DNA from: Pseudomonadales bacterium
GTDB lineage: Bacteria > Pseudomonadota > Gammaproteobacteria > Pseudomonadales > CAWVSB01
Assembly: GCA_046710535.1 (NCBI GenBank)
Contig: JBKEHH010000014.1
Coordinates: 13,927 to 77,926, forward strand
Direction of reading: 5' to 3'
DNA: 64,000 nt
The notes below the pieces were generated by a model, which saw only the letters and a list, made by a program, of their open reading frames with translations, had not been told where the DNA came from and did not search any database. Within the stretch, counting starts at the first letter, position 1; each line of letters begins with the position of its first letter. Shown one piece after another: positions 40,059-58,505 of this stretch. The translations under genes were made by a program, and so were the position numbers.

Positions 40059-40101
40059 AGCTGCTTTTAAACAACTAAAAACATTGATAGGAACATAAGT
40101 T

Positions 40102-40866: not shown

Positions 40867-41660
40867 GCGCTTTTGGCTCTAGTGATGAATTTTGAAACTC
40901 AAATAACGGTGTGTTCGCCGATATAACATCCTCAAGTGCGTTATAACTTCGCAACATTGGATAGGATCCACCATTAATATTGAACATGCTAGTTGCGCCA
41001 GACGGGGTAATATCAAGGTTAGTCTTAGGCTCGTTCGATTTGTCAAACGGACGGGTAAATACTGCGACCATATAATGTTTATTACCCCAAGGTAAACTCG
41101 CTCCTTCGGGAACATACGGCGACAATACGCGTGAGCCTAAAATGAGTAAGTCTTGTTCAGATTTAAAAGAGGTAATCCCTTGAGTTACTATGTTTTGACG
41201 CAAATATCTATGTAGGCTAAGAATTGCAGCGGTATCAGGCTCTGGCAATAACAAATTGCTAGGGCTAAAGTTAATCAGATCTTTCAGGCTTACCGTTGAC
41301 AGTATGTTTAGCTCACTGTCTAACAATGCTGTATGGCTAAGACCTTTAACCTGACTGCTCAGCTGATAAGAGAATTCAATAAAAACTGGCTTCTAATGCG
41401 TGTTTTCTGGATTGGTTTTCCTTCTCTAGCGCAAGGCCAAAGCCCTGACTTTATTCTCCAGCTTTACTCAGTGCAGAGTCGATTTCAGATACCGCTTTCT
41501 CTACATTAAGCAGGGCAATCTTTAAGGCGAACTTAGTCCTATCAATTTCAGTCAAACGACTTTGATCGAATAATATTTTCCAAGAGCCCATCGCCATTAA
41601 GATCACTATCACCAAAATAACGAGCACTAACGTTAAAATAATTCGTTTCTGAAATCGCAT
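40859..41660 (-). pseudogene. 5-prime remnant of a membrane sensor (TM helix plus periplasmic domain), disrupted and truncated
   Basis: MRFQKRIILTLVLVILVIVILMAMG... with a stop at 41451. It continues in other frames (…KPVFIEFSYQLSSQVKGLSHTALLDSELNIL…SPYVPEGASLPWGNKHYMVAVFTRPF…). No second TM or output domain is present. It ends overlapping the SDR gene's 3-prime end. Confidence 0.35.
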
Positions 41661-42728: not shown

Positions 42729-42891
42729 TATAACTTATCCATTTATGCAGCTATGACAGCCAATTAGCAGTTTAGCTTAAGTTGGCCATTGGCTAACCGG
42801 TTCAGCATAGCTGATTTTCCGATAGCGCTATCGATTTAGCTGTTAAATACTCGACCTTTTGGGAGTGCTAGAATGAAATATTCCGGCGACG

Positions 42892-43368
42892 CTAGAATAT
42901 TTCAATTACTGAGAAATGCTTGCGCTCATTGCCTAGCACTATACTAATTTCGTCATCAACAGCGGTACCAATCAGCACTCTTCCCATTGGTGTTTGAGGC
43001 GAAACAGTGAGTATCGATAAGCCGTTTATTGCTAGTTTCATCCCGCCGGCGCTGGGGCCGATAAAGAGTATTTGAGAGTGATCCTTGTTATCATTAATTG
43101 TTACTGTACTGCCAACTTGGACAGTTGTGTGGCTAGTGGTAGTGGCTGAGTCTAATCGTCGATATTGTGCGATAGACCCTTGTAGCTCAGCAATTCTGAC
43201 CGATTGGCCGTGGGCCAAATATGCTGCCTCAACGGCTAAAGTATCATACTTATTTTCCGCTACATTCTCTTTATGGGTAGCGCTGGCGTGTGCTTGTTCA
43301 CTGGCTTTGGTCGCTGTTGCTAGCTCCTGAGCTAGACGCTCGATTATGGCATTAATAATTGTGTTCAC
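42892..43368 (-). CDS. GreA/GreB-family (Rnk-like) transcription factor
   Basis: N-terminal coiled coil plus a C-terminal GreA/B domain (VQVGSTVTIND...SPQTPMGRVLIGTAVDDEISI). Confidence 0.65.
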   Translation of the reverse strand: MNTIINAIIERLAQELATATKASEQAHASATHKENVAENKYDTLAVEAAYLAHGQSVRIAELQGSIAQYRRLDSATTTSHTTVQVGSTVTINDNKDHSQILFIGPSAGGMKLAINGLSILTVSPQTPMGRVLIGTAVDDEISIVLGNERKHFSVIEIF

Positions 43369-43687
43369 AGGCGGTATAAGCCTATAGATGCAATAGGGTT
43401 GATGTGTTTATATAAATGCATTGCGATGTCGCCTTAAGATTTAAACCAATAACCGTAGTTAAGCGTATGTATTCGGTTGTAGCTGATATATTTAGAGATC
43501 TATTGTGCCGCATTCAGCCGTAATTGAACAAAAATCAGCTAATATATGGTGCTAATTTGGTGCACTGACAACTTTCTGTACGGTAGATCAAAAAAAGAGT
43601 TATTTTTGCGAAAAATTGGTATCAGTATTCTAAAGCATAGTGCTAGATTAGACTTCATTGTAAACCCTTCGTTTAGGACCTAATAAA

Positions 43688-45163
43688 TTGATATTGTTGT
43701 TAGACACCGAGAAAAAACTAAAATTTGTCTGCGATCAGGCAAATTCATATGACGAATGGTTAGAAGCCGCGACTGCCTATGACGATAAGCTAGGCCATTC
43801 CCGCTGGAAGGTTTATGATCAGTCAACCCAATATGACTTCGTATCTATTCGCCAGCGCCTAGATGAGTTGCGATCACTGCGGGCAAGACATGACCATAGA
43901 GGCCTACTATTTACCTTGAATGAAGGTATTCACGGCAATATGGGCGGCATGGGTAAGGCGTTGCTGTATGGCCGCGCTATGTTAGGAACGAAACAGTTAA
44001 TTATCGACTATGTTGACGAAATTGTTGATGCACTAGAGTTAATAGCCAGTGACGAAGTCGTTGATATTTCGTTCGAAGAAAAACTGGATTTTTTCCGTCG
44101 CGCCCATCACTGTTTTGGTAGTTCAGCATTTATGATGAGTGGTTCGGGTTTATTACTGTTTTTTCATGTTGGTGTTGTGAAAGCGCTATCAGAACAGGGC
44201 TTATTGCCAAACATTATATCGGGTGCCAGTGGCGGATCTATAGTAGGCAGCTTAGTTTGTACGCACACGGACAAAGAACTTAAAAAATTACTAAACCCGG
44301 AATACTTCGCGAAATTGATCTTGAGCACGCCTGAGATTGAAGAAAAAGCAAATCGTATGATTCCTCCATTGATAGAAATTGAAGAGATTCATGTGATTGT
44401 TAAGCGGCTGATTCCCGATATGACCTTCAAAGAATCATTTGAGAAAACAGGGCGTGTTCTTAATATATCTGTGGCTCCCGCAGAAACACATCAAACATCA
44501 CGTTTGCTGAACTCAACGACAACGCCAAATGTGTTAATTCGCCAGTCAGTTTTAGCGTCAGCTGCAGTTCCCGGTATATATCCACCGGTGACATTAGAAG
44601 CTAGAGATAGCTATGGCCAACGTAAGGCGTATTTGCCGTCGCGTAAATGGGTTGATGGTTCGGTCAGTGATGATATGCCTACTAAGCGCCTAGCTAGGCT
44701 ATATGGTGTTAATCACTTCATTGTTAGTCAAACCAATCCGGCAGTATTACCGTTTGTATCGGACAGTCTGCGTCCTAGTGGCAACCGTGCCATTATTAGA
44801 AGCACCGTAGCGAGAACGGGCCGAGAATGGGTTAATGCTGCAGCAACAATTGCGCGTAAACCATTACAGCGTAACCCCAGCTTACATCGAGCATCTAATT
44901 TATTTTTATCGCTACTGAATCAAAATTATTTAGGCGACATTAATCTGGTACCTAAAAATCGCTTTCCAAATCCTTTTACCTTATTGGCGTATCCCTCGGC
45001 GGAAAAGATTGCCCGCATGATGAAAGACGGTGAAAAGTCTACCTGGGGACGAATGGAAATGGTTCGTAACCAGACAAAAATTAGTCGTACTCTTGATGCT
45101 ATTGTTAGAGATTACGAAGAAGACTTTATGAACATTCATAAAGATAAGGTCCAAGCCGGATAA
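43688..45163 (+). CDS. patatin-like phospholipase (DUF3336-type N-terminus)
   Basis: GASGGSIVG (GxSxG) and VDGSVSDD (catalytic DG). Non-ATG start as listed. Confidence 0.85.
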   Translation: MILLLDTEKKLKFVCDQANSYDEWLEAATAYDDKLGHSRWKVYDQSTQYDFVSIRQRLDELRSLRARHDHRGLLFTLNEGIHGNMGGMGKALLYGRAMLGTKQLIIDYVDEIVDALELIASDEVVDISFEEKLDFFRRAHHCFGSSAFMMSGSGLLLFFHVGVVKALSEQGLLPNIISGASGGSIVGSLVCTHTDKELKKLLNPEYFAKLILSTPEIEEKANRMIPPLIEIEEIHVIVKRLIPDMTFKESFEKTGRVLNISVAPAETHQTSRLLNSTTTPNVLIRQSVLASAAVPGIYPPVTLEARDSYGQRKAYLPSRKWVDGSVSDDMPTKRLARLYGVNHFIVSQTNPAVLPFVSDSLRPSGNRAIIRSTVARTGREWVNAAATIARKPLQRNPSLHRASNLFLSLLNQNYLGDINLVPKNRFPNPFTLLAYPSAEKIARMMKDGEKSTWGRMEMVRNQTKISRTLDAIVRDYEEDFMNIHKDKVQAG

Positions 45164-45169
45164 TACCAA

Positions 45170-45799
45170 ATGGCTTTAGCCAATACGGTTGTCGTACTCG
45201 ATTTTGAAACCACAGGCTTATCACCAGACGAAGGGGATAGGGCTATCGAAATTGGTGCAGTGCGTCTTGTCGACGGTGAAATTGTTGACCACTTTCAAGA
45301 ATTAATGGACCCAGGCAGGCGCGTCAGTGGTTTCATCGAAGACTACACCGGTATTACCAACTCTATGCTTAGTGGCGCCGATTCTTGCGCAGCGGTGATG
45401 AGGCGTTTCAGTGATTTTATCCAAGACGATAATTTAGTTGCCCATAATGCCTCATTTGATAAGCGCTTTTTAGACGCTGAATTTAGTCGTATTTCAACAA
45501 CATATCGTGGCGAGTTCTCATGTTCACTGTTGGCAACACGACGTATCTTTCAAGCAGCGCCTAATCACCAGCTTGGCACCTTAGTTAAATACAATAATAT
45601 AGAAAGCAGTGGTGGGTTTCACCGCGCGTTATATGACAGTGAAATGACTGCTCATGTGTGGAATAAAATGCTGCTATCTTTAGCGCAACATTATTCGCTA
45701 GGTGAAGTATCGTTTGAGCTTATTCAAAAGATAAACAAAACACCTAAGAAGCAGATTCATAAATTTTTAACAAAGCACGCGCAAGACTTGCAGAATTAA
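45170..45799 (+). CDS. DEDDh 3-prime-5-prime exonuclease (DnaQ/epsilon-like)
   Basis: VVLDFETTGL, LVAHNASFDKRFL, HRALYDSEMTA. Confidence 0.85.
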   Translation: MALANTVVVLDFETTGLSPDEGDRAIEIGAVRLVDGEIVDHFQELMDPGRRVSGFIEDYTGITNSMLSGADSCAAVMRRFSDFIQDDNLVAHNASFDKRFLDAEFSRISTTYRGEFSCSLLATRRIFQAAPNHQLGTLVKYNNIESSGGFHRALYDSEMTAHVWNKMLLSLAQHYSLGEVSFELIQKINKTPKKQIHKFLTKHAQDLQN

Positions 45800-45823
45800 C
45801 AGGCTATGTCGACGCCGATATAA

Positions 45824-46333
45824 CTACTTTGGCTTTACTGTTAAATGGTTATTTGCATCTCGGCTGCTAATAATTAACGCATCATTAGTCTCAATGTCAG
45901 CCTTGGCCAGCCTGTCATACAACACAACATTAACCGTAGCCGCCAAATTTAGGCAGCCCACAGTGGGTATATAAACAACGTCATCAGCCTGATCGATAAT
46001 GGCCTGGCTAATGCTGCCATCTTCGGGGCCAAAAACATAATGTGCATTACGCGGATGAACGTAAGAGGGCAGAGGTATTGCGCCTTCAACCAGCTCTACA
46101 CAGATAATCTTTGTGTCTTTAGCCAATTCATCAAGTACCGAGTCTTTATGGATTAAAGGGATATTACCAGCATTTTTTTGGGTGTCGGTATTAAAAGGTA
46201 AAGCGCGGTTAAGTCTATTACCCGAATAGGAAATACTACTTACTCCAAAGCAACCCGACGCTCGTAAAACCGCCCCAACATTAGTTGGACTTTTAGGGTT
46301 AATAAGGCCAATTGATAGTTTGGGCGCTGGCAT
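45824..46333 (-). CDS. SpoU/TrmH-family RNA 2-prime-O-methyltransferase
   Basis: NVGAVLRASGCFG, FGPEDGSIS, CLNLAATVNVVLYD. Confidence 0.8.
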   Translation of the reverse strand: MPAPKLSIGLINPKSPTNVGAVLRASGCFGVSSISYSGNRLNRALPFNTDTQKNAGNIPLIHKDSVLDELAKDTKIICVELVEGAIPLPSYVHPRNAHYVFGPEDGSISQAIIDQADDVVYIPTVGCLNLAATVNVVLYDRLAKADIETNDALIISSRDANNHLTVKPK

Positions 46334-46426
46334 AAACAGTTAGTCTCGCTACAGTTTTTGCATTTAGTTTATCATCTATAGCGAATAACTGGCATATCAA
46401 TGGATCGGCAGAAGACCTTGTAGCTG

Positions 46427-46693
46427 TCATTGCTCCGCCAGTATTAGGTTAAATTTCGTATAAAAATCTTCTAATGAGCGTTTGTCTGGTGAATCTACTT
46501 TAAATTTATTATGGAAGTACAAATATAACGTTGAGTCTCTATTTGAAATCATCAATGTGTAGCCGTCGAAAGAGCTTTCCGCCTGCAGCCCTTGGTAGAA
46601 TTTACCACCGTCTTGAGCTTCACCATGAGTATATATGGTATTAAACACTGCCATGATATCTCGCGGCGCTAACTTTCTCTCATCAGTTTTCAT
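46427..46693 (-). CDS. hypothetical protein (intact copy of a duplicated small gene)
   Basis: 88-aa ORF. A decayed paralogue at 48227-48436 supports real coding. Confidence 0.45.
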   Translation of the reverse strand: MKTDERKLAPRDIMAVFNTIYTHGEAQDGGKFYQGLQAESSFDGYTLMISNRDSTLYLYFHNKFKVDSPDKRSLEDFYTKFNLILAEQ

Positions 46694-46987
46694 ATTTCTC
46701 TATGACTCTCTTGGTGAGCAAACTTACGTGCCATTATACCAAACAGATTGGAGACGAAACGATAAAGGTAATATCGGCCGAAAAGTAAACGTAGATTTGA
46801 CCATGGCTGTTAAGTCATTAAAGTAAGAGTTTTTTCGATTACTCTCGACAGATCTTAAAAGCTTCATCAATAATTCGAGCGCCGGCATCACTGTGTGTTC
46901 ATCCCATTATATGCTTCCCCTTCGCTATTAACCAGTGGTGACTAACACATACGCCAAAGCTCGCATGACCCACGTCAAATAATAATT

Positions 46988-48124
46988 CTATTTTTCCTCA
47001 AAAGTAACATTAGGCTCATTTTGATCAACATAAGCTTCTGTTAAATAGTCTCGGAAGCTTTCGTCATTTTGTAAAAAAGTTTTAAAAAATGCGACACCGT
47101 AAACGTTTTGTATGCGAAGAGACTCATCAACTGAAAACACATCAGGTGCACAAGTGTTTTCATAAATTGCTTGCAAAGGCGCTGCCGCCGGGACTAATGC
47201 AACCAGTTCATCAAAGCTGGGAAAAAATTCTAATGCGGCCTTTGCGATGTCGCAGGAGGTGGTGAAATGGTTATGACCAGCACCGACTATTTCAATATTA
47301 TAGACTGGCGATTTATCAACCTTAGCAAACGCTTCTCTGTTGGTTTCAATCGGCACACTAGTATCCAAGGTACCGCCAAGAAGTAGGGTAGGAATAGCTA
47401 GGCTTTTGTATTGTCCATCAGTGATCGGGGCGGCGGGGACAAAAAACCATCCTGCCACCGGCATACTGGCGGTTACGCGAGGATCTGCAGGTGCATCACC
47501 AAAACCGACAGCCATCCCCAGGGTCGTTACACCACCAAAAGAATGCCCTGTTACGCCAACGCTGTCTGGTAGGATCGTGCCTTCAAATCTGTCGCCGCTA
47601 GTACTGCTCATTATTAACATCTGATCGATAACAAATGACATATCTGCTGCACGATTTGCAACCTGCACAGCTAATTCATCGCCATTATCGCCATTTGCAT
47701 TACCGGCATGAGTTGGTGCAGCGACAATAAAACCCTGAGTAGCTAGCGCTTCCATCATCGAATAAGCCTGATTGCTCAAACCACCACTTCCGTGTGAAAA
47801 CACAATCAAATTACGGTCAGGTTTCTGTGACACCGGTAAAACTTCGCCGGCAATTTCAGATGTAATACCAATGCCATTTCCTAAATCATAAACCGCAGCC
47901 GGATCAGCCAAAAAGTCGATATCATCAACTGGATACCATATATCTACTTCCAGTTGTCTGTTGTCTCTCGTTGAATCAGTTATTGTAAATTTATCATAAC
48001 CAACACCAGAGGTGCCTTTTATTGACGGCAACTCTAACGGGAGAACCACTGATCTATCGCTTCCGCCGCCGTCACAAGCCGACAACAATGTAACTAGACC
48101 AGTTATTAAAACGAAACGCAGCAT
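46988..48124 (-). CDS. alpha/beta-hydrolase lipoprotein (PAF-acetylhydrolase/lipase-like)
   Basis: Lipobox LLSAC, nucleophile elbow VTGHSFGG, second motif FSHGSGG. Confidence 0.75.
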   Translation of the reverse strand: MLRFVLITGLVTLLSACDGGGSDRSVVLPLELPSIKGTSGVGYDKFTITDSTRDNRQLEVDIWYPVDDIDFLADPAAVYDLGNGIGITSEIAGEVLPVSQKPDRNLIVFSHGSGGLSNQAYSMMEALATQGFIVAAPTHAGNANGDNGDELAVQVANRAADMSFVIDQMLIMSSTSGDRFEGTILPDSVGVTGHSFGGVTTLGMAVGFGDAPADPRVTASMPVAGWFFVPAAPITDGQYKSLAIPTLLLGGTLDTSVPIETNREAFAKVDKSPVYNIEIVGAGHNHFTTSCDIAKAALEFFPSFDELVALVPAAAPLQAIYENTCAPDVFSVDESLRIQNVYGVAFFKTFLQNDESFRDYLTEAYVDQNEPNVTFEEK

Positions 48125-48226
48125 AGTAGATTCCTTTTTACTTATAATTTGGTTGGTTGTTTAAAGTACCGCACAGATACTAATGCAGAGTAGGGGTTCA
48201 ACCTAGAAATCACGTAATCTTCAATA

Positions 48227-48436
48227 TTAAATTAAATTCAGTATAAAAGCATTATTATGAACGAGTGTGAGTTCTCCAAATTTGAATTTATTATGCAAGT
48301 CTATATATGCAGCTGAGTCTCTATTTCAAATTATCAAGGCATAGTCATCTACAGAACTAGCGTCAGCATGAGTATAAATAGCACTCAACACCGGCATGAT
48401 ATCTCCTGGTGTAAGCTTTCTCTGGTCATTATACAT
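48227..48436 (-). pseudogene. decayed paralogue of ORF 46427..46693
   Basis: MYNDQRKLTPGDIMPVLSAIYTHADASSVDDYALII*NRDSAAYIDLHNKFKF... compares with MKTDERKLAPRDIMAVFNTIYTHGEAQDGGKFYQGLQAESSFDGYTLMISNRDSTLYLYFHNKFKV. There is an internal deletion and an in-frame TGA. Similarity extends into the 5-prime leader. Confidence 0.65.
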
Positions 48437-48802
48437 AATGCGTAATACGTATTTTTATTTTAGGCTGACTGAAGCGACTAAACGGACGTATTATTACGCC
48501 AAATAGATTAAAACAAAGGGGAATTAAAACTACTAGTTTGCCAAGAACTGAACTCTAGTTTTTATCATTGGATTTTAGAAATCGTGTTAAAGCAGAGCTG
48601 CAAATTACTTACTCAATACAGTTTTTACCACCAGAATATTCTTGATAAATCAGTGATGTCTTTTTTGGGCTACGCCAAATTTTTACTCAAAGCAGTAATA
48701 TCACATATTGTCTTTTACTAAAAGTACATAAGTACTAATAAATATTATCAATAGATAGGGATGCCGATCCAACCACACGCACCCTATCTTTTCTTGATAA
48801 AG

Positions 48803-49597
48803 CTATTTCTTTGCTAGTTTCACAGGACGACGCAATTGCATATTGTACAATCTCGCAACGTTGCAATGTACTATATCACCAAAAATTTGGCGGGCTTTCA
48901 TGACACCGCCACCTGTGCCATAGGCGTCAAAGGCATTGCCAAAATCAACATAATTCGTATAGCCCTGAACCATTTTAAAATCAAAATCCACATCACCGCC
49001 ACCAAAAGCAGGCCAGAGAGTAAGCATAGGGCCGGTAATACCTTTGTTAGTTAAATAGTCACCCCAAATAGTTAAGGCAGCACCTGCGTCGGCAGGTGTT
49101 TTACCTTCGGCAATTTTGCAATCAGCAAAGGTCATTACCGCAGTATCAGGTGTTTCTACCGGACCTGCAGTTATTACATTAACTGCGAAGCTAGCATGTT
49201 GTGGGCAGTTCATGACCTTAAAGAAATCCTTAGTAGCATCTTGGCCTTTTTTGGACATCGTTTTTTCTATAGCTGCTCCCATTGATTTGCCGTCAGGCCA
49301 AAATCCCATCCAGACCACATCCATGTTCACACCAGGATCATTGAACATCGGTGTGAGTGTTATGCCTAAATAGTCATGCTGTTTTGTTTTATCCATCCAA
49401 GAGTTCCACTTGGCGGTCGCCTTATTTACTCCGCTAATATTTTGACCGTCTTTGTAGTTACATAAAAATATCTCTGCGGGTGAAAATTTCGGACCTTGAT
49501 GATTATCTGCCATTGCTGGACCACTGACTAACAGTGCTGCAAAAAGTGAGATAGTGGTTGAAACTAATTTTAAGGTTTTTATTGGTTTTATTAACAT
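48803..49597 (-). CDS. secreted hypothetical protein with apparent internal two-domain duplication
   Basis: Signal peptide ...LLVSGPAMA. Two halves of about 100 aa share a C..W..(W/Y)..L.P.F...G.A...G...F..(V/I)..C pattern. Confidence 0.5.
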   Translation of the reverse strand: MLIKPIKTLKLVSTTISLFAALLVSGPAMADNHQGPKFSPAEIFLCNYKDGQNISGVNKATAKWNSWMDKTKQHDYLGITLTPMFNDPGVNMDVVWMGFWPDGKSMGAAIEKTMSKKGQDATKDFFKVMNCPQHASFAVNVITAGPVETPDTAVMTFADCKIAEGKTPADAGAALTIWGDYLTNKGITGPMLTLWPAFGGGDVDFDFKMVQGYTNYVDFGNAFDAYGTGGGVMKARQIFGDIVHCNVARLYNMQLRRPVKLAKK

Positions 49598-49875
49598 ATC
49601 AATCTCTCCTTGAAGTGAAGAGCAAGTGTATGGGTCGTACCAAAAGTAGCAATGTGCTGTTTATACTCTATTTGTCTAAAGATTATTTTTTTCAGAACTT
49701 GCTAACATTTCATTCCATTTTATATTACTAAATAATTTACTAGCTTGCTTATCTGAGCGAGAAATCAAGCAGCGCTAGACTACTAAATATATTTGTTGTG
49801 CCAAGGAACAAAGCCTATGGTTTGTAATTGAGTTTGTGAAATGGGCTGAGTAATTGTTGAAAGCGTTTTACTAAC

Positions 49876-50047
49876 ACCAGCTTTGCCAGCTAATTTCCTC
49901 ATTAGAGTTATATAGGGAATGTCTAAAGAAAGGCATAACAATTACGCCAGGGTCTTTATTTACATCGCAAGGTAATTACCTGAATTTTTACAGCTTAGCT
50001 ACGCACATCCATGGAATGCTCAGCGAACAGATGGACGACCAAGCTAA
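49876..50047 (+). pseudogene. 3-prime remnant of a MocR/GntR-aminotransferase-like (PLP fold-type I) gene
   Basis: ...LELYRECLKKGITITPGSLFTSQGNYLNF, then after a 1-nt shift, LQLSYAHPWNAQ... This is the typical C-terminal PG..F....LRLSYA.PW pattern. There is no upstream part. Confidence 0.4.
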
Positions 50048-50163
50048 GTATCTATACTAAAATCAATATTTAAGTTGGAAATTAGTAGATTTATTCTTGA
50101 TATCCAGTCATCTAATTATGAAATAGATTAATATCCAACTTATTTATACTCTTCCAAGATAAA

Positions 50164-50237
50164 TGTGATTTTAGTTGACCACTATAATAGTTAACGCAGG
50201 AATTTGGAGTTCACCCTGTAATAAAGTTTAAATGGCG
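50164..50237. repeat. candidate Tn7-like left-end repeats: TGTG terminus-like start followed by four abutting A/T-rich-AGTT units
   Basis: TGTGATTTTAGTTGACCAC / TATAATAGTTAACGCAGG / AATTTGGAGTTCACCC / TGTAATAAAGTTTAAATGGCG, with AGTT at 50173, 50189, 50208 and 50225. The units recall Tn7 TnsB-site cores (AATAAAGTCTTAAAC, AAAATAGTTGG; from memory). They end 24 bp from the tniQ stop. Confidence 0.4.
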
Positions 50238-50260
50238 TTACTAAGAGATTAACCAAAACC

Positions 50261-51820
50261 CTAGAATTTTGCGTAATGTCGAAATTCATAGGGGGAATTA
50301 AACGGGAATGACTTTAGTCTATGCTCAAGATAATCATTGAATTCTTCTGTGAGTGCTTTGTATTGATGCCAAGGAAATTGAATAGTATCTATGAATTCAT
50401 AAAAAAATAATGATTCAAGAGGGTAGTGTTTTTTATGGTACCTAGTGAATTTCTCGCATATTTTATGATCATTACGCCTAGTCTGTATCTGATAACCATC
50501 TAACGGATAAACCACGTCCTTTAAGAATACTCTTAATTTACCCTCTTTAATCTCACAACTGTAATATTGATAATTATGAGGCCTTTCTTTATAAGGTGCA
50601 TAAAGCGTATCTGTTGTGAGGATTGATTCTTTGTTTACTTTTTCCCCAATATTATTCACTAATCTTTCTACTCGCTCGAATATATCGATAAAGCAGATTT
50701 CTAAGCTTCGTTGATAGAACCATTCAATAAAACGCTCTTCATAATTTAGATATCCTTCAATTATTAAAGGATGAAAGAATTGGAAAGGGTGATAAAAATT
50801 CCTATTATTTTCACTGTTTATCAAAAAAGGATAGTCTCTTATGGTTATAAAATTATGGATTTTTAGTGAATAGTTGAAACTTTCTACGTAGAAAAAATAC
50901 ACACTCAAAGCGGTACAAAATTTACATGATTTGGGTGCTTTTAAAAGATCTTTTAGACGTATAGATTTTAATGTGAATACTTTTGATCGATGCCCCTTAG
51001 GACATTGTTTTGCAATCCATCGTAAAATTCTGGTTAATGTTAGATATTTGACTCTCGCCATTTTAGCGATGAGTTTAGGTGAATAATTATTGATGAAAAA
51101 ATCTTCTCCTTCATATATCGGATTGATTTTTTCATATTTATTAAAAATGATAACCCGTACAGGTGAGATGGGAATTTTTAGAGATTGTAAGAGTTTATGA
51201 GTTACTTTTTTGTCTTTGATAGTGAGAATCGTTGGGTAATACCTGTCTTTTGGCGATATTTCATACCAGCCATCACCAAAAGATGGAATTGATCTCTGCT
51301 GAGAGAGATTTTCTTCTAAATAGTAGTAGTTTTTAGTCAACCAGTCTCTAAAAAGGTTGTCTAGTTTTTTTATAATTTTAAAATCGACATCTGTAAGAAC
51401 TAATTCAGGCTCTGAAGTAATATTTTGGGCACTATAGTCAATTGTCCCATCTTTTTTCGTGTTATCATCAAGACAAACTACAGAGGGAATTTCAGCGGTT
51501 AATTTACAGTGATGTATAGGGCAATGGGTTATCCAAGGTATATTAAAGATATCTGTATGGAAAATTATCTGTGCACATTTAGGACAAAATTTAAATTCTC
51601 CTATTAGTTGCGTAGCAATTTGATTGGAACTTTCAAACCCTTGATATGCGAGCACTCTCTGTTTGAACCCTGTAATCTCAGGAAATATGGTTTTCAAATA
51701 TTTATCAATAAATATTTGTGATAGTCCCCGATTTGCTACCATAAATCTCGTTATGCAGGAGAGCTCGCTTTCGTGAGGTCTCTTAAAATAGTCACCTGAG
51801 TTAAAATGTAGTCCCATCAC
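50261..51820 (-). CDS. tniQ: TniQ/TnsD-family target-selection protein
   Basis: TniQ-like N-terminus (PHESELSCITRFMVANRG) with a Cys/His cluster (FCPKC...WITHCPIHHC). 519 aa, comparable with Tn7 TnsD. 4-nt overlap with tnsC. Confidence 0.8.
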   Translation of the reverse strand: MMGLHFNSGDYFKRPHESELSCITRFMVANRGLSQIFIDKYLKTIFPEITGFKQRVLAYQGFESSNQIATQLIGEFKFCPKCAQIIFHTDIFNIPWITHCPIHHCKLTAEIPSVVCLDDNTKKDGTIDYSAQNITSEPELVLTDVDFKIIKKLDNLFRDWLTKNYYYLEENLSQQRSIPSFGDGWYEISPKDRYYPTILTIKDKKVTHKLLQSLKIPISPVRVIIFNKYEKINPIYEGEDFFINNYSPKLIAKMARVKYLTLTRILRWIAKQCPKGHRSKVFTLKSIRLKDLLKAPKSCKFCTALSVYFFYVESFNYSLKIHNFITIRDYPFLINSENNRNFYHPFQFFHPLIIEGYLNYEERFIEWFYQRSLEICFIDIFERVERLVNNIGEKVNKESILTTDTLYAPYKERPHNYQYYSCEIKEGKLRVFLKDVVYPLDGYQIQTRRNDHKICEKFTRYHKKHYPLESLFFYEFIDTIQFPWHQYKALTEEFNDYLEHRLKSFPFNSPYEFRHYAKF

Positions 51821-52764
51821 ACAGCCTTTATATTTTCTGGCACGAAGCCAGTGGCATCTAATGCACGCTCTACCATTTCTTCAGAGAGATGATCAACTCC
51901 GTAATGAGGCAAAAAATCAGTTAATAAAACATTCACCATTGATATAAAGTACTGCATACCCCAAGAATCAATCTGATATGCTTTTTGATAACGGGTGAAA
52001 GTACCCCATAATAAAGATGCCGCATCACTTAAGCGCCAATTATCATTAAACGCCTGTGGTAAAAAGAACTCTGTATAAACTGGACCGTCTTCTTTGGGAA
52101 AACGCAGTGAGTCGTATTGAGCAAGACACGCTTTGACATCAGCTTTATTTCGAAGGCCATAGAAGTTATAGATATTTATGAAAAATCGACCATGGATATG
52201 ACGATATTGTTTCTTTCTGATGACATGTAATAAAGACTCCGCCTCATCGCTATTCACCACAAGGAATACATGTAATTGGATTTTGTATTTCTCACGTAAA
52301 ATGTCATAGATTTGGCAAAAGACTCCACATTGCTCTGGTGATAATCGCTGTGCTTCATCGGCAAAGATAATAAACTGACGGCTCTTTTTCTCAGCCAAAC
52401 TATCGAGAATATAGCAGAGGAGATTATTCAGCATAGGTTCTACTCGCATGGTATTGGTAACAGGTAAATCCACGCTAACCAATAATGTTCTATAAAGAGC
52501 ATTTACTGTTTTTCGGTCAAGGGTAGGAACGGTCAGAAAGTGAGAAGGGATGATTTCGCCACGACGATTTTTCAGATTATCTCTAATGTAATCGAGCGCT
52601 GTAGTTTTTCCATGGCGCGCCTGCCCTTGTATCACTGCACCAGTGATGCCGTTCCAGAGCAGCTGTGTTAACTGGTCTTCAAGTAACTGAATAGCAGGTG
52701 TTCGTATGATGAGATCATAAGGATGGAACACGGGGTGATCGTAGTAATCAATGTTTTGTTGCAT
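51817..52764 (-). CDS. tnsC: TnsC/TniB-family AAA+ ATPase
   Basis: Walker A GQARHGKTT and Walker B FIIFADEAQRL. 315 aa, which is TniB-sized. Confidence 0.85.
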   Translation of the reverse strand: MQQNIDYYDHPVFHPYDLIIRTPAIQLLEDQLTQLLWNGITGAVIQGQARHGKTTALDYIRDNLKNRRGEIIPSHFLTVPTLDRKTVNALYRTLLVSVDLPVTNTMRVEPMLNNLLCYILDSLAEKKSRQFIIFADEAQRLSPEQCGVFCQIYDILREKYKIQLHVFLVVNSDEAESLLHVIRKKQYRHIHGRFFINIYNFYGLRNKADVKACLAQYDSLRFPKEDGPVYTEFFLPQAFNDNWRLSDAASLLWGTFTRYQKAYQIDSWGMQYFISMVNVLLTDFLPHYGVDHLSEEMVERALDATGFVPENIKAV

Positions 52765-54646
52765 GATTCGATACCATGAGTTTAGTGGATAGGGAAGTAC
52801 TCCAAGGTTTGATCTTCAGTGTAGTTTGGTCAACAGCTATCGCATCATATGAATGATCTTGAGATGGCTTTAATATAAGAGGTTCATCACCAGAATCCGT
52901 AAATTCATCATATATTTTAAGAATTTTCAGATTATCTTCAGAGTTACCTTTATGTTCCAATAAGTACCTAAAATAGCCTGCCAGTAAATCGGTAGCATGA
53001 AATGCATGAGCTTTCACTAGATTGTGAATATGTTTACGGGTTGCCAGGCTGTGTTTAAATCTACGCCACGATCTTGAAGCTAGTAATGTCCCTAATGCGG
53101 CACCGCCTGTCGTAAAAACACTTAATTCCCGAATGTCGCGTATATCGTATTCGACAGTTACGTAACTATCGTCTCTTAGAGCTGTATATAATTCTTGATG
53201 ACTTGAGGTATAGCGGACATAGAAGAAATTTACGTGGGGCTGTCTATTTTCTTTTTTTAGCCACTTAATCGGTAAATTTACTCGCCGCGTAAATGGTGAC
53301 CAGCGCTCTCTAAGGATCTCTGGAGTGTATCTCACATAATGATTCTGATGATGGTCAAGAAACAACGATAGAGGTGTTGTTGCGCCAAGGTGTGATTTCG
53401 GAGTCACATTATCTTGAGTCAATATAATACTGAGCGCCTCTTCTAATGTTCGCAGGGTAATCAACGGCACTTTTTTATTGTTTTTTCGTGATTCTTTTTT
53501 TGGGTCTTTAGGGTGTGATCCTGTAGTCGAGTTAGCACGATGACTAAAATTTATGTTGATATAGTTAAAGGCAGCTTCAATCCAGTTCCGTGTTTGGGGA
53601 ACAGCTGGGGGGCCAAAACTTAGAGTGGCTGACCGTTGTATACATATGACATCACGCACGCTATGGGAAAAATGGGATAAAGCATTATCCAGCTGTAAGG
53701 TATTAAAATTGATGTCTGTAATTGCTGGGTGACCTGATGGAAACATTGCTCCTGGTTCATATTGAAACCCCGGTGTTGTTAACTGTAATGGTTGCCAAGG
53801 TTTTATACATTTATCGAACAACATGAGAATGTCTTGTTGGTTAGGAGTTTTTGTATAGGCTATTGCAAAACCTAATTTGCAATTAGTATCGACGTCCATT
53901 GCCAATAAGAGGTTGATCCGTTTGATGCGAAGCGGAATCAACTCCTCATTGAGTTGAAGGTGGATACTAGTATGTAAATCCATGGTTTGTTCGTCAATTT
54001 GAATAGTTCTTAAAGCCCGCTGTGCTGGAAGATCGGAAATATACTTATGTGCTTTTTGATCGTGTATCCTCTTTAACTCATTACTGCGCTTGTGGAGATA
54101 TTGTCGTACTGATTCATAAGCCACACTTTGCGTGTTGTAGGGATAACAGTCGGTTGGATGATTAGCCTCTCTAAGCACATTCTTAAACTCACCATGAAAT
54201 ACCTTGGGCGTGAGATTTTGACTATAGGGCTTATCACTTTGGTATGCCTTAATCATGCTATCCAGACGACTTTCCATATATGGAACATGATTCAATAGCC
54301 ACTGAAAGCTATAATTCTGCCCACTAGTCATATCCATTGGTTGACGGCGTTCGCCTTTATTTAAGCGTTTATCAGGAATCAGCCCCTGAGTTAAAGGCGG
54401 AGGCTCATTCTCATCGCCACTCAAGCACCGATTGAGAATGTGGCTAACAAAAGAAGTGGAAACCTGATGAACTGTTGCTGTGTGCTTGATTGAGACGCCT
54501 TTTAGAACCGATAGAGCGATCTGCTGATTACGAATAAACCGTTTGCGTTTGGATTTATGTAAATTCGACACATCCACATAAGGCCATTCAGCAAGCTGCC
54601 GTAACCGAGGCTCTCTATCTAGGCGAACTGACCAATTGATCTGCAT
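52748..54646 (-). CDS. tnsB: TnsB-type DDE (Mu/retroviral-integrase-like) transposase
   Basis: N-terminal HTH region. DDE candidates are IQIDEQT, LQLDNALSH and WIEAAFNY. A C-terminal Mu-transposase-like beta domain is present. 632 aa. Confidence 0.9.
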   Translation of the reverse strand: MQINWSVRLDREPRLRQLAEWPYVDVSNLHKSKRKRFIRNQQIALSVLKGVSIKHTATVHQVSTSFVSHILNRCLSGDENEPPPLTQGLIPDKRLNKGERRQPMDMTSGQNYSFQWLLNHVPYMESRLDSMIKAYQSDKPYSQNLTPKVFHGEFKNVLREANHPTDCYPYNTQSVAYESVRQYLHKRSNELKRIHDQKAHKYISDLPAQRALRTIQIDEQTMDLHTSIHLQLNEELIPLRIKRINLLLAMDVDTNCKLGFAIAYTKTPNQQDILMLFDKCIKPWQPLQLTTPGFQYEPGAMFPSGHPAITDINFNTLQLDNALSHFSHSVRDVICIQRSATLSFGPPAVPQTRNWIEAAFNYININFSHRANSTTGSHPKDPKKESRKNNKKVPLITLRTLEEALSIILTQDNVTPKSHLGATTPLSLFLDHHQNHYVRYTPEILRERWSPFTRRVNLPIKWLKKENRQPHVNFFYVRYTSSHQELYTALRDDSYVTVEYDIRDIRELSVFTTGGAALGTLLASRSWRRFKHSLATRKHIHNLVKAHAFHATDLLAGYFRYLLEHKGNSEDNLKILKIYDEFTDSGDEPLILKPSQDHSYDAIAVDQTTLKIKPWSTSLSTKLMVSNHATKH

Positions 54647-55326
54647 GATTGAAACCGTGTAGGAAAGTCTAAGGGTGCTTCATTAAGATTGGCGCGAAAT
54701 TGCCCGTGATACAAGAGACGAAAAAGACCAATCTCGCGCTGATAGGTGCGCTCCCGATCCCCTCTATCAACAATATCACCCAGATAAAAGCAGTCTGTCA
54801 CGGTGCCAAATTCACCCAACAAATCAATCTCTGCTTGGTGAGTATCAATATCTACTGCTTGATGCAGCGTATGGACAATCATCAGCCAGTTCTCAGCGGC
54901 TAATTGCTGCTCAAACACAGTCTCATTAGCAAGTGTGCCGAAGCTCATTTGACGTAAAGCAAAGAATTGCTTGAGGGCCTCCACTTGGTTTTCATCAAAT
55001 TTACCCTCAGGTTTGAGTTCTAACACCTGCTGATCACCGTTTGCTTCAACGTAGATATCAGGTGTGTAGAAACCTCCAAAGACTTTTAACCGATACGGTT
55101 GCGGCACATAACGACGTACGGTGGGGTCACCTTCTAGCAAGGCAACATGGAGCAATTCGGCCAGTGAGTGAAATTCAGAAATTCCGGGGTGTTTCAGTAG
55201 GCAGCATTGAAAAAAATTTGTAGATTTCTTGAAATTCGGCCTAGTAGGCTGTTGTACCGGTTCAAGTGTATCGGCCCAGACATGCCTTGCCATGTCATAT
55301 CGAGAATGGAGTAACTGCTGGCTCAT
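54619..55326 (-). CDS. tnsA: TnsA endonuclease
   Basis: Restriction-endonuclease-like triad context: SLAELLHVALLEGDPTVRRYVPQP, YTPDIYVE, QVLELKPEG. Confidence 0.85.
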   Translation of the reverse strand: MSQQLLHSRYDMARHVWADTLEPVQQPTRPNFKKSTNFFQCCLLKHPGISEFHSLAELLHVALLEGDPTVRRYVPQPYRLKVFGGFYTPDIYVEANGDQQVLELKPEGKFDENQVEALKQFFALRQMSFGTLANETVFEQQLAAENWLMIVHTLHQAVDIDTHQAEIDLLGEFGTVTDCFYLGDIVDRGDRERTYQREIGLFRLLYHGQFRANLNEAPLDFPTRFQSCRSIGQFA

Positions 55327-55394
55327 GGCTTTCCCCCAGTAAAATGAAGAGACAAACGCTATCAGAAACAGGGATGCTTTAATACGCGGAGCTT

Positions 55395-55445
55395 TGCACC
55401 AATTATATATAGTTTGGTGCAGGTATAAAAACGCCTATTTTTATA
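55395..55445. promoter_or_regulatory. two adjacent perfect palindromes in the tnsA / recombinase divergent region
   Basis: TGCACCAA-N11-TTGGTGCA at 55395-55421 and TATAAAAA-CGCCTA-TTTTTATA at 55424-55445. A third TGCACCA lies at 55508-55514, just before the recombinase ATG. Confidence 0.5.
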
Positions 55446-55528
55446 GACAAATACGCTTAAAAGGCGGTTATGTCACCCACTTAAGCGGTTTATAATACCT
55501 CTCAATATGCACCAGAGTACAAGGGCAA

Positions 55529-56263
55529 ATGGTACAAACACATTACACAGACCATGAATTTTCGCCAACGCGCAGGCGCAACCTCTTTGCACCTATCGAA
55601 CGTCCTGCCGTCACGTTCCCGATACAGTCTGTCGTTATCGATTGGGATCGCCTGCAAGCCAAACGTGCCATCGTGCTAGAAACCGCCGACACCATGCCAG
55701 CTTACCTGCTGAAGCCCGAAATCAATCTCCTACTTGATGCGGAAAAAGATCCAATTTATCGCCTCATCTATGACTTAATGTGGACAACAGGAGCACGGGT
55801 ATCTGAAGTCCTCGCGTTAACCCCTGAACGCTTTACCAATGACGGCTACGATTACGGTGTTATTTTAAAAACACTCAAACAAGGGTCAGGACGACCAACT
55901 AAAAAGTCCTTACTTCGATCGAAAAAGCGCTATGTGCCCATCGTTGATCGGGGCGTACAAGATAGAATTCAAAGCTATTTATACACAGGACATTTTAGAA
56001 AGACTGAACACATATTTACCATGAAACGACAAACCGTTTGGCGACATATTCAGCGATTAGTGGAGAGAGTAGGGGGCGCACCATTTTCGATATCTACAAA
56101 GACCTTTAGGCATTCTTTCGCTGTTCATCTCATATTACATGGCAGGCCTTTAAAGATTGTCAGCAAACTCCTAGGACACGCATCGATACAAACGACAGAA
56201 ATTTACACCAACGTCCTAACGGTAGACGCTGGGCATTTTTTAGAAGGGGTGGATTTTCATTAG
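55529..56263 (+). CDS. short tyrosine recombinase (catalytic domain only; FimB/XerC-like)
   Basis: TGARVSEVLAL (Arg I), FRHSFAVHL (Arg II; the first His of HxxR is replaced by Lys: KTFRH), LLGHASIQTTEIYTNV (His/Tyr nucleophile). 244 aa with no recognisable N-terminal core-binding domain. Confidence 0.85.
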   Translation: MVQTHYTDHEFSPTRRRNLFAPIERPAVTFPIQSVVIDWDRLQAKRAIVLETADTMPAYLLKPEINLLLDAEKDPIYRLIYDLMWTTGARVSEVLALTPERFTNDGYDYGVILKTLKQGSGRPTKKSLLRSKKRYVPIVDRGVQDRIQSYLYTGHFRKTEHIFTMKRQTVWRHIQRLVERVGGAPFSISTKTFRHSFAVHLILHGRPLKIVSKLLGHASIQTTEIYTNVLTVDAGHFLEGVDFH

Positions 56264-56807
56264 AGAAAGGATATTAATAGCTCGGTGTATGTTGAAGACT
56301 GCCCGCTTAAAGGATTCATGATTACGTTTAATGCAGTTGCCTAGTAACTATGTTAAGTGTCTAGTAAAGTCTGGGAAGTTCAGGGAGTCCGAGTTCAAGA
56401 GATAGGTAGCCCTTTTTTACATTTCTTTTCTTCTTCCACGCGCCAGAGACTTTTTTCAAATTCTCGGTTTTTCTTTGGTATGGGGTCATTGGTGTTGCCT
56501 GTGGCAAATACCATTGTGCTCTTCTCGAAGCTGGCGGACTCATTTGTCCATGATAAATTTTCTAACTCCCAATGCTTTCTCTGTTTTGCGAATAGAAACA
56601 TCTTAGATTCACAACTAGACGTGCTGCCTGTAATCTAAATTCTGGGTTTTATGTCGGTCTCACTCGTCTGTTCATTGATCCGTAAGTAGTTATGAGATGA
56701 TAATGTCACCTTTTAATCAGGTGGTCAGCTTCACTATTACACTATCTACTACTTAACAGCCTATAAATGGATTATTCAGTTCGCATTTAGTGCTGTCAAA
56801 AGGCGAG

Positions 56808-57275
56808 TCATTTAGTTTGAATGGTTATTGTGGCGCTAACATTCCCAGGTTGCTTTCCTTTATTTAATGTTAATGACGTTATCTTGGTGCTTTTTGAGGA
56901 AGTATTTAATGCCCCGATAAGCGCTATGGTTTTACTATAAAGCGCATCATTGGTAGAGATAAGTACGCCTCCATCTGTTTTCGGTTGTATTCGATCCAAT
57001 GTAATTTCGTATTCGGCGGCAATTTTCGCGAGATCACTAATGGTAACTTCGTCAGTTCCAGTTCGAGTTCCATGATTGCTTTCTATCAGAGTATTTTTAT
57101 TTATCTGCATCCATGATAACAGCGACTTTTTTTCCGTATATCCATTTATAGCTTTTAGCTTCAGGGTATTGATAGAAGGCAAAATGACAAGCGAAAGAAT
57201 GATAGCTACCAAGGCAATAGCGTGACGCGGGTGTGATTTAGCATTGGTTTTAATTTGTTCTACGAGTTCATTCAT
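56808..57275 (-). CDS. gspM: T2SS GspM-like protein
   Basis: 155 aa with a single N-terminal TM (HAIALVAIILSLVILP) and a periplasmic ferredoxin-like-sized domain. It sits directly after the gspL-like gene. Confidence 0.55.
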   Translation of the reverse strand: MNELVEQIKTNAKSHPRHAIALVAIILSLVILPSINTLKLKAINGYTEKKSLLSWMQINKNTLIESNHGTRTGTDEVTISDLAKIAAEYEITLDRIQPKTDGGVLISTNDALYSKTIALIGALNTSSKSTKITSLTLNKGKQPGNVSATITIQTK

Positions 57276-57290
57276 ATTTTACTTGTGAGT

Positions 57291-58505
57291 CTATAAAGTG
57301 ACTTGTATTTTTGCACTGATAGTAGATTTTTGCTGATCTGCATTTAGTAATTTGGCTTTTGCACCATTTTCTTCAATCAATTTCACATATCGTTGTATTG
57401 CATCATGACTGGTGGCCTTAATATCTATAGTAAGACCGTTACTAGGCTGAAATCTCAACGATTGTATGTCAACTACATCCGCTGGTTTTAAAGCGCTTAC
57501 CAGCAACTGCTGAAGATTATTATTTGTTGCTGAACTAGTGTTATTGATATGTTGTTTAAGTTGTCTTTTAAGACTAATTATTCGTTTGTCTTGAGGATAT
57601 ATTTCCTTGTATAAGGCGACAGCTTGATCTTGGTATTCTTTTTCTTGTGACGAGTAGTAAAGCCACGACACGGTATTAATAACAACAACCATCAGAAGTA
57701 CAGCCGCTGCACTAATAGCAAATAACGGTTTTTTAATGAGATCGTATAACTCGTGTTTGATGTCTTTACGCTTATTGGGTAAAACGTCCCAGTATTCCAG
57801 TTCCGCTGAATGGTCTACTAACCATTGTTCGATCGGTACTGCTATTGAGGAATAGTCATAGCGGGCGTGTACCATATTACTGTCTATAGTCGGCTCACCG
57901 AAATGATGGTGAACTATGGAGTGGTCATCAGTACGTTCTCTTATAATACTTTCTAAAAATACAGTTAAATTTTTATAATCACAGGCGTAGGTGTTTGTTT
58001 GATCAAGGTTAATCAATACCATTGATTCGTCGCTGACAATTGTAATTGTCCTATTTGTTGATGAAATTAAGTGAGTATCTAAGATGGTTTTGCTGATGGG
58101 CACATGTTGTTTAGCTAAGAATGCGAGCCATTGGCTGGATAGCTGTTTATGTATGGCAACAGCTTTCCATTGATTTTCATCAAATGGGTGGCAGGTGATA
58201 GTGAATGCGTCAATATCTTCAAGAGCGTATTCTTCAAGATGATATTTGATGGTGTTGGAAATATGCTGGGATTTGTTATCTGTGTTAGGTAAATCGATGC
58301 AATCACAAATGGTGTGCATCGCTGGCCATACCAAAATACACTCATCCTCATCCTCATCCTCATCGTCGTTGATGACGGATATTAGCTGCGCGCCCGCTAT
58401 GAGTATTGCATCAACGCCTATTTCTTTCTGGTAGGCCTTAATACCTCCCCAAGTAGGGGTGCTGTTTATTGCCTGTTGATCAATAAATAGAAAATACCTA
58501 GTCAT
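57291..58505 (-). CDS. gspL: T2SS GspL-like protein
   Basis: 404 aa: about 250-aa cytoplasmic domain, one TM (LFAISAAAVLLMVVVINTVSWLYY) and a periplasmic domain. 8-nt overlap with gspE. Confidence 0.6.
   Translation of the reverse strand: MTRYFLFIDQQAINSTPTWGGIKAYQKEIGVDAILIAGAQLISVINDDEDEDEDECILVWPAMHTICDCIDLPNTDNKSQHISNTIKYHLEEYALEDIDAFTITCHPFDENQWKAVAIHKQLSSQWLAFLAKQHVPISKTILDTHLISSTNRTITIVSDESMVLINLDQTNTYACDYKNLTVFLESIIRERTDDHSIVHHHFGEPTIDSNMVHARYDYSSIAVPIEQWLVDHSAELEYWDVLPNKRKDIKHELYDLIKKPLFAISAAAVLLMVVVINTVSWLYYSSQEKEYQDQAVALYKEIYPQDKRIISLKRQLKQHINNTSSATNNNLQQLLVSALKPADVVDIQSLRFQPSNGLTIDIKATSHDAIQRYVKLIEENGAKAKLLNADQQKSTISAKIQVTL
58341..58364. repeat. hexanucleotide repeat (CTCATC)4 inside gspL-like gene, encoding DEDEDEDE
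   Basis: Read directly. Confidence 0.95.

Follow-up and report, generated by a model that had tools for sequence, protein, structure and literature searches.

Insertion sequences (IS) of the IS3 family, IS911 among them, carry an orfA whose product has an HTH_Tnp_1 domain and an orfB whose product has an rve domain, and A AAA AAG is the canonical −1 programmed frameshift signal of IS3 and IS911. The right end of a Tn7-like transposon lies next to tnsA and shows arrays of TnsB sites of ~20 bp, TGT...ACA termini and a 5-bp duplication. Tn7 itself homes to glmS, and Tn7-like elements typically insert downstream of conserved genes. As to tyrosine recombinases, the XerC-like/dif-like system of Tn6022 is the nearest described analogue of the recombinase module treated below (PMC11014353), and the tyrosine-recombinase-derived target selectors TnsF and Tsy are examples of a link between such proteins and Tn7-like targeting (PMC10293859). 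Here we analyzed a window of 64 kb from a Pseudomonadales bacterium (contig JBKEHH010000014.1) and, within it, a tract of 544 bases (56264-56807) that separates the stop codons of two convergent genes, the recombinase gene rec on the plus strand and gspM on the minus strand. A sequence-only reading of this DNA had suggested that the tract could be the true right end of a Tn7-like element. We conclude with high confidence that most of it is instead the truncated, pseudogenised front end of an IS3-family (IS911-like) element, thus non-functional debris and not a Tn7-like end.

The IS3-family remnant between rec and gspM

The tract had been described as holding only short open reading frames (ORFs) with no recognisable similarity. 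The ORFs are indeed short, with 93, 68 and 60 aa, whereas the lack of similarity is refuted by database searches. When the tract was compared to 72,556 plasmids by distant blastn, 807 records matched (best E 8e-11), all of them beneath IS3-family transposase genes and all at tract positions 115-308 (window 56378-56571), and in a phage collection the tract matched the IS911 copies of the Shigella phages Sf6 and SfII. The match lies on the overlap of orfA and orfB in the copies fetched from plasmids of Klebsiella, Vibrio, Pseudoalteromonas and Leclercia, where both genes run antisense to the plus strand of the window. A 1.25-kb IS3-family element on a plasmid of Vibrio sp. J383 served as the main reference. 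Its proteins have the IS3 architecture, with HTH_Tnp_1 (PF01527) in OrfA and HTH_21 plus rve in OrfB according to Pfam. The parts recognised in the window are the following.

56289-56746 (~455 nt), minus strand: IS3-family (IS911-like) remnant with left inverted repeat (IRL), orfA', frameshift site and 5' start of orfB', collinear with nt 1 to ~440 of the 1.25-kb reference
56694-56746, minus strand: IRL and leader of the remnant, 79% identity over 53 nt, E 3e-6
56378-56675, minus strand: orfA' pseudogene of the HTH_Tnp_1-type IS3 OrfA, interrupted by in-frame stops and one or more frameshifts
56412-56418, minus strand: A AAA AAG heptamer, in register at the homologous orfA/orfB overlap
56379-56429, minus strand: first codons of orfB' (KRNVKKGYLSLELGLPE), matched in tblastn by OrfB residues 12-28 with 76% identity, E 1e-5

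At the DNA level, blastn aligned nt 255-376 of the reference with window 56497-56378 (73%, E 3e-12) and nt 3-55, the IRL and leader, with 56744-56694. These two were the only significant matches of the reference in the whole window, and both lie inside the tract. A semi-global alignment showed collinearity over the first ~440 nt of the IS, starting at its tip, and a similarity that fades between ~56320 and 56290. Over the IRL the window reads ...GATAGTGTAATAGTGAAGCTGACCACCTGATTAAAAGGTGACATTATCATCTC where L030 has TGTAGTGGCATAGTTAATTTGGCCACCTGATTAAGAGGTGATGTATGATCATCTC. The tip of the repeat is at 56746 in the ungapped register with the references (GATAGTG compared to TGTAGTG); a reading with TGTAAT as the tip places it at 56741 and introduces a gap of 5 nt.

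At the protein level, two reference OrfA proteins were used in tblastn. Residues 1-75 of the Vibrio OrfA matched 56675-56451 with an E of 6e-10 in the tract and 7e-8 in the whole window, across in-frame stops; the start of the protein reads MTKRERRTFNPEFKLECAQLV in Vibrio and MNRRVRPT*NPEFRLQAARLV in the window. OrfA residues 27-100 matched 56596-56378 in a different frame (E 2e-7) and reached the C-terminus of the protein, where KKATALLMSDSLN aligned with KRATYLLNSDSLN. The heptamer occupies the position expected of an IS3 frameshift site (AAAAAAGGGCTACCTATCTCTTGAACTCGGACTCCCTGAAC in the window, AAAAAAGGCTACGGCTCTCTTGATGTCAGACTCCCTGAAC in the IS) and represents a predicted signal. It is unlikely that the IS3 matches would be lost under a compositional or low-complexity control, since protein and DNA matches are collinear over more than 400 nt.

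Beyond its first codons, OrfB with its DDE/rve domain found no further match anywhere in the window. The DDE domain is missing because of the truncation, and we therefore class the sequence as a remnant and not as a functional IS. What it shares with IS911-like members of the family are the IRL and leader, OrfA from residue 1 to its C-terminus, the heptamer and the start of OrfB, in the same order as in the intact plasmid copies from Vibrio, Pseudoalteromonas, Leclercia and Klebsiella. It differs from them in that 440-455 nt out of ~1.25 kb survive, with multiple stops and frameshifts, an altered tip and neither a DDE domain nor an adjacent right inverted repeat (IRR). Its DNA identity to the database copies, 68-81%, indicates a diverged lineage. 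The remnant cannot transpose.

The IS3 homology also accounts for the short words on which the sequence-only reading had been built. All of them were found where it had placed them:

56603-56638: proposed hairpin with the arms TTAGATTCACA (56603-56613) and TGTAATCTAA (56629-56638), separated by N15
56365 to 56741: the further words, namely ...CACTATTACA ending at 56741, TAAAGTCTGGG at 56365, TAAATTCTGGG at 56636-56646 and AACTCCC at 56564-56570

The arms of the hairpin are codons of EFRLQAARLVVNL in the OrfA helix-turn-helix, and the hairpin itself is unexceptional, its 10 pairs with one bulge being equalled in 9 of 60 shuffles. Read on the opposite strand, TAAATTCTGGG encodes (N)PEF, which is the best-conserved motif of OrfA and lies within the helix-turn-helix NPEFRLQAARLV; GGGAGTT falls within ALGV of the same helix-turn-helix. 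The ACA at 56741 belongs to the left inverted repeat of the IS, where TGTAATAGTGAAGCTGACCACCTGATTAAAAGGTGA is the counterpart of TGTAGTGGCATAGTTAATTTGGCCACCTGATTAAGAGGTGA in the reference. The broken orfA and orfB frames, together with chance antisense frames, make up the short overlapping ORFs.

Outside the remnant, the tract is made up of two short flanks, one of which contains a promoter-like site.

56264-56288, plus strand: 3' flank of rec, the sole part of the tract common to the closest rec relative, L027
56747-56807 (~61 nt), no strand assigned: flank that separates the IS tip from the gspM stop, possibly native sequence, with no similarity to anything searched
56799-56771, minus strand: sigma-70-like site TTGACA-17-AATAAT with 11 of 12 consensus matches, directly past the gspM stop and aimed into the IS remnant

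In L027, whose rec protein is 80% identical, AGAAAGGATATCAATAGCTTGATG stands against AGAAAGGATATTAATAGCTCGGTG in the window; the 25 nt past the stop are shared and are followed by complete divergence.

A functional small gene or regulatory RNA in the tract, for example the 68-aa ORF at 56395-56601 (minus strand) expressed from the sigma-70-like site as a small cargo of rec, appears very improbable. The near-consensus site does point into the region, this ORF is annotated as a gene in at least one public annotation, and related rec modules hold cargo at exactly this position. Yet the ORF is the C-terminal half of the broken IS3 orfA frame, of which it is the longest open stretch (PIPKKNREFEKSLWRVEEEKKCKK compared to PEQQKIRELERKIKRIEEEKEILK), and among 1.84 billion representative proteins it has no homologue but itself. 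Nor does the number of sigma-70-like sites in the region exceed the shuffle expectation. Pfam and NCBIfam gave no match for the three small ORFs, Rfam gave none over 49000-58000 at E up to 1, and the minimum free energy of the tract stayed at shuffle level, with z-scores of 0.06 for the plus and −0.65 for the minus strand. With both the Rfam and the folding scans negative, the non-coding RNA that had been raised as a possibility finds no support, and the tract is neither an RNA gene nor a conserved small protein. Read-through or a fortuitous promoter at 56771-56799 (minus strand) could transcribe the IS3 pseudogene.

The 61 nt next to gspM bear on a further explanation, in which the tract would be native sequence downstream of gspM and serve as the attachment site for rec or for a tns element. 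These 61 nt match nothing and may be native, and a position downstream of a conserved gene would be typical of a Tn7-like insertion. Most of the tract is IS-derived, however, and the related tns and rec loci are found in unrelated contexts, not beside type II secretion genes. No related genome with an empty site is present in the databases: GspL finds only itself at E <1e-30, and GspM is found on one other public contig, which holds this region with the same arrangement. We regard an attachment site as improbable, hardly less so than a small gene.

Several observations weigh against the assignment of the tract to an IS3 remnant. The conceptual OrfA' of the window is too decayed to pass any Pfam threshold, as expected of a pseudogene, and the terminal dinucleotide in the ungapped register is GA and not the canonical TG. 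The inner break is bracketed to ~56290-56320, and only one end of the element survives in place, which leaves no pair of flanks for a target-site duplication. The 61 nt beside gspM and the 25 nt beside rec could still hold a short functional site. Finally, in the one other contig the tract is 100% identical, so that conservation cannot show a lack of constraint and covariation cannot be assessed.

Tn7-type ends and the motif near tniQ

To the left of rec lies a divergently oriented module related to the transposition genes of Tn7. The genes and sites on either side of the tract are listed below.

55529-56263, plus strand: rec, 244-aa Xer-like tyrosine recombinase (Pfam Phage_integrase, E 7e-20); the tract sits where relatives hold defence cargo
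56808-57275, minus strand: gspM, last gene of the type II secretion operon, followed by gspL, gspE and gspD
54619-55326, minus strand: tnsA-like gene, left of rec
52748-54646, minus strand: tnsB-like gene, left of rec
51817-52764, minus strand: AAA_22 ATPase gene (tnsC), left of rec
50261-51820, minus strand: tniQ-like gene, left of rec
50261-55326, minus strand: the whole divergent tnsA-tnsB-tnsC-tniQ module, with weak TnsA, TniQ and Mu-transposase_C matches plus AAA_22
55395-55421, no strand assigned: rec-linked palindrome TGCACCA-N13-TGGTGCA, one per locus
55508-55515, no strand assigned: third half-site TGCACCAG, just past TATAAT (55491-55496), at the rec transcription start
50152-50186, plus strand: probable right-end (IRR) remnant of an IS3-family element, tip at 50186, 75 nt past the tniQ stop; contains the motif TGTGATTTTAGTTGACCAC of the sequence-only reading

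The TnsA, TniQ and Mu-transposase_C matches are all below threshold in the curated profiles of Pfam and NCBIfam, and comparison of the tns proteins with solved structures gave no match. TnsB-like homologues number 73 and are mostly from marine Gammaproteobacteria. This tnsABC-tniQ family is highly divergent and without detectable Tn7-type ends.

The proposal that the tract is the true right end of a composite Tn7-like element including rec, with TnsB-binding repeats and a TGT/ACA terminus, takes its strength from the neighbourhood of the two modules. Seventeen tns loci were fetched, which gave 15 distinct elements with upstream sequence; in 12 of these 15 rec lies divergently upstream of tnsA, and in seven loci the palindrome is found 64-77 nt from the tnsA ATG. 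The spacer between rec and tnsA resembles less a transposon end than a divergent promoter region shared by the two genes. Further left, at 37-48 kb, the genes are of housekeeping type (SpoU methylase, RNase T, patatin, GreB, SDR, GST, LysR), so that any element here would be small. The tract also lies on the tnsA-proximal side of the tnsABC-tniQ module and has an ACA-ended sequence, as a Tn7-like right end would.

Against this stands, first of all, that 455 of the 544 nt are IS3 sequence. Only 25 nt and ~61 nt are left beyond the IS fragment, too short for a Tn7-type end. The tract has no array of TnsB sites, no inverted partner and no 5-bp duplication; rec stands between it and tnsA, and its ACA is part of the IS3 inverted repeat. 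Rec modules are also found without tns genes, and in pairs of loci with 95-97% identity homology ends at the rec stop and resumes further out, which fits an internal cargo hotspot and not an element end. The transposon terminus that had been noticed in the tract does exist, although it is that of an IS3-family element and not of a Tn7-like one. Likewise, of the options that had been offered, the remnant of an earlier insertion is upheld for an IS of the IS3 family, not for a Tn7-like element. A Tn7-like right end at this place is accordingly as improbable in our view as the small gene discussed above.

Direct searches for ends agree with this assessment. An inverted pairing of the tract with the DNA beyond tniQ had been suggested; Smith-Waterman alignment of 56264-56810 with 50040-50262 on both strands gave scores of 19 and 20, compared to a dinucleotide-shuffle mean of 19.5 (sd 2.1), and no inverted-repeat relation to the tniQ-distal side thus rises above shuffles. 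Inverted 18-mers with at least 13 matches to the tract or to the rec-tnsA spacer, counted per 200-bp bin over the whole window, were not enriched (maximum 8, in three unrelated bins, mean 2.3). An exhaustive search for TGT/ACA termini with a 5-bp duplication, combining low ends at 40000-50262 with high ends at 55327-56810, found no plausible pair, the only TGT/ACA hit falling within coding sequence with 13/24 identity. Smith-Waterman comparison of the 6 kb upstream of tnsA with the 8-12 kb downstream of tniQ stayed at background for inverted repeats in the window and in seven related loci, and none were present at the homology-defined boundaries of a Kangiella pair and of the window. A repeat finder run on 49600-57000 gave 50061-50090 and 56744-56773 as the best inverted pair, which at 73% was no better than dozens of others. 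No related locus that we examined showed Tn7-type ends. An inverted copy of the rec 3' end, considered as a terminus, was not found. In the Halofilum ochraceum locus (L011), two direct copies of AGGTWWAGCGTTTTCTGTC lie at 21216-21234 and 21330-21348, 114 nt apart, at the far end of the defence cargo. This repeated 19-mer was rejected as a set of TnsB sites, as it has no inverted partner in the 21.9-kb locus and is absent from the other loci.

The motif near tniQ is of another kind. The resemblance between the sequence at 56741 and that at 50164, on which the pairing had been based, can be traced to the terminal inverted repeats of one IS3 subgroup, which both sites match (IRL, E 3e-6; IRR, 16/18). 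For the second site this holds on the other strand, and with the tip at 50186 rather than 50164. There the window reads TTTTAGTTGACCACTATA, compared to the IRR tips TTTTACTTGACCACTACA, AATTAGTTGACCACTACA and TTTTTGTTGACCACTTCA of three reference IS copies. On neither strand of the window was a better match found than the 16/18 at 50169-50186, which 7 of 300 block-shuffled windows reached as well (p ~0.02). In a looser, gapped test the match was not significant, 6 of 20 shuffles doing equally well, and a database search with 49598-50262 found no IS. We consider the motif at 50152-50186 a probable, though not certain, IS3 right-end remnant.

The tip at 50186 is 6.5 kb away from the IRL, and no IRR adjoins the IS remnant in the tract itself. 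If the IRR remnant is real, IS3 debris would bracket the tniQ-tnsC-tnsB-tnsA-rec block, with the IRR tip at 50186 and the truncated orfB' at ~56290 facing the block and the IRL outermost. The left end of the tns element may moreover be truncated in the window, since the IRR-like tip lies only 75 nt past tniQ, whereas the Kangiella pair has a conserved tail of ~135-150 nt at that place. Two further features are found in this region. At 49860-50058 (plus strand), an aminotransferase-like C-terminal fragment (...GITITPGSLFTSQGNYLNFYSLATHIHGMLSEQMDDQAKYLY*) with stop codons ahead of it represents a pseudogene remnant and adds to the signs that the block has been rearranged at its left border. Between this fragment and the IRR-like remnant lies a 27-nt inverted repeat (50066-50092 and 50121-50147) with 78% complementarity and a 28-nt loop.

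The rec module, its palindrome and its cargo

More than 287 homologues of rec were found, the top 120 at 66-80% identity. Across the fetched loci rec is 62-73% identical and thus better kept than TnsA, TnsB and TnsC (27-56%). The palindrome is located ~105-135 nt upstream of the rec ATG, in the 200-bp spacer between rec and tnsA, and members of the family also have a half-site at the transcription start. Every rec locus has a single copy of the palindrome, whether tns genes are present or not, and the tns loci that have no rec lack it. Neither the tract nor the remainder of the window contains a second one.

Tns genes are wholly lacking from four independently sampled rec loci (Teredinibacter turnerae, Aestuariirhabdus, Aurantivibrio and one metagenomic contig). 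On this ground rec is a separable module, and more probably a neighbour or target of the tns element rather than its cargo. The asymmetry, with rec beside 12 of 15 tns elements and tns beside none of the four rec loci, would follow from homing of the tns family to rec sites and not from a role of rec as Tn7 cargo. It falls short of a proof of homing, as no end sequence is conserved beside the palindrome. We also considered whether an inactive TnsA would call for rec as a resolvase of cointegrates. This idea is weakened by the conservation of the catalytic E/D/K motifs of TnsA, judged by comparison with Tn7 TnsA; there is therefore no need to assume that replicative transposition imposes a resolvase function on rec.

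Some loci deviate from the common arrangement. In L010, a Kangiella locus without rec (7714-8664 and 8651-8683), a different tyrosine recombinase of 316 aa ends at the half-site CTGCACCATTAAAC, where the homologous tns flank begins. In L005 (Pseudomaricurvus), a shorter palindrome, GTACCAACC-N6-GGTTGGTC, is found at ~232-258, on the upstream side of tnsA at a distance of 75 nt, and the 230 nt of sequence available there contain no rec. Together, L010 and L005 suggest that the tnsA-proximal border of the tns family is tied to tyrosine-recombinase sites. In three other loci (L019 1915-5347, L006 8905-9324 and L009 8543-9231), 0.4-3.7 kb of extra DNA, with an HTH gene in Kangiella, lies between palindrome and tnsA, and the upstream side of the palindrome is thus also an insertion point.

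Downstream of rec, the relatives carry defence genes which start within tens of bases of the rec stop. The following were found at this position.

L004: CBASS cyclase with E1-E2
L024: Gabija GajA/GajB
L013: Dsr1
L002 and L003: Avs-like STAND ATPases
L006: HKD plus Snf2
L016: HmaC
L011: 2044-aa double-PIN protein
L025: ubiquitin-like system

Two pairs of loci, L006/L016 and L013/L014, are 95-97% identical from rec through tniQ, and in both the homology breaks 0-2 nt from the rec stop. After an interval of 0.1-4.6 kb, L013/L014 and also L006/L019 are homologous again (coordinates: L006 8039-8046 with L016 4900-4905; L013 6985-8382 with L014 409-5016; L006 6486-8046 with L019 942-1055). A break at the rec stop with resumed homology marks an internal cargo hotspot and not the end of an element, and indicates a cassette-like replacement of cargo at the rec 3' end. 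The last 37 codons of rec recur in L025 (5559-5669) and L026 (5251-5361), in a degenerate form interrupted by two stops, ~1 kb beyond the intact gene and past two small ORFs. This duplicate hints at a scar of insertion or replacement, with accretion by recombination at the rec 3' end. The tract has no such remnant of the rec C-terminus, and when the neighbouring ORFs of the related loci were compared to it by tblastn, the only matches were those of the rec C-terminus. In the window, palindrome and rec are both present, and the cargo position holds the IS fragment only.

With the Tn6022 system the rec module has in common a Xer-like recombinase, a nearby palindromic site, an association with Tn7-like genes and a diversification of cargo. 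It differs in the size of the recombinase (244 aa, with a short N-terminus) and in the site, which here is a symmetric palindrome upstream of the gene and in Tn6022 a hybrid XerD half-site downstream. The rec module is moreover widespread without Tn7-like genes, its cargo is anti-phage defence, and its recombination activity is putative. Neither the Tn6022 system nor TnsF/Tsy fits the architecture of the rec module, and a literature search found no description of this rec family. It is apparently a large, undescribed family that anchors defence-gene hotspots and stands repeatedly beside a divergent Tn7-like module.

Proposed history of the locus and its meaning

Homology, collinearity, decay and truncation of the IS are directly observed. 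A history compatible with these data would start with an IS3-family (IS911-like) IS located downstream of gspM, in the orientation opposite to rec. This IS would then have gathered stop codons and frameshifts. A deletion or rearrangement would subsequently have cut off the DDE domain, the right end and all other sequence past the first codons of orfB, with one of its edges ~25 nt past the rec stop, at the junction where the cargo of related modules varies. The same deletion that truncated the IS could have removed a former cargo, although both this coincidence and the order of the events are reconstructed from the present arrangement. For the bracketing of the block, two histories would fit, either two inverted IS copies that have since been eroded, or one IS split by an inversion that broke orfB. 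In both, the remnant at 50186 would stem from the same or from a sister copy of the IS, and IS-mediated rearrangement would have bracketed the rec-tnsABCQ block.

In its widest form, which we advance tentatively and with more doubt than conviction, the proposal would make the tract the emptied cargo bay of an undescribed platform. This platform would consist of the 244-aa Xer-like rec and its single upstream palindrome, be widespread in marine Gammaproteobacteria and swap defence systems at its own stop codon, and would also be a preferred landing site or obligate partner of the divergent tnsABC-tniQ family. The IS3 fragment would then have been left behind when the cargo was lost, and the IS3 ends at 50186 and 56746 would record an IS-mediated capture or inversion of the rec-tns block.

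In summary, the tract itself, a dead IS3 fragment, matters little. Its identification removes a false candidate for a Tn7-like right end and explains the orphan ORFs called by automatic annotation. The tns module appears hemmed in by IS debris, with 75 nt from the tniQ stop to the probable IS tip, and may no longer be mobile. The surrounding rec and tns context is more useful and deserves a separate look: if it is true that the tns family homes to the rec-linked palindrome, this would be a new mode of target selection for Tn7-like elements, with a logic comparable to that of the "res hunters" of the Tn5053 family.

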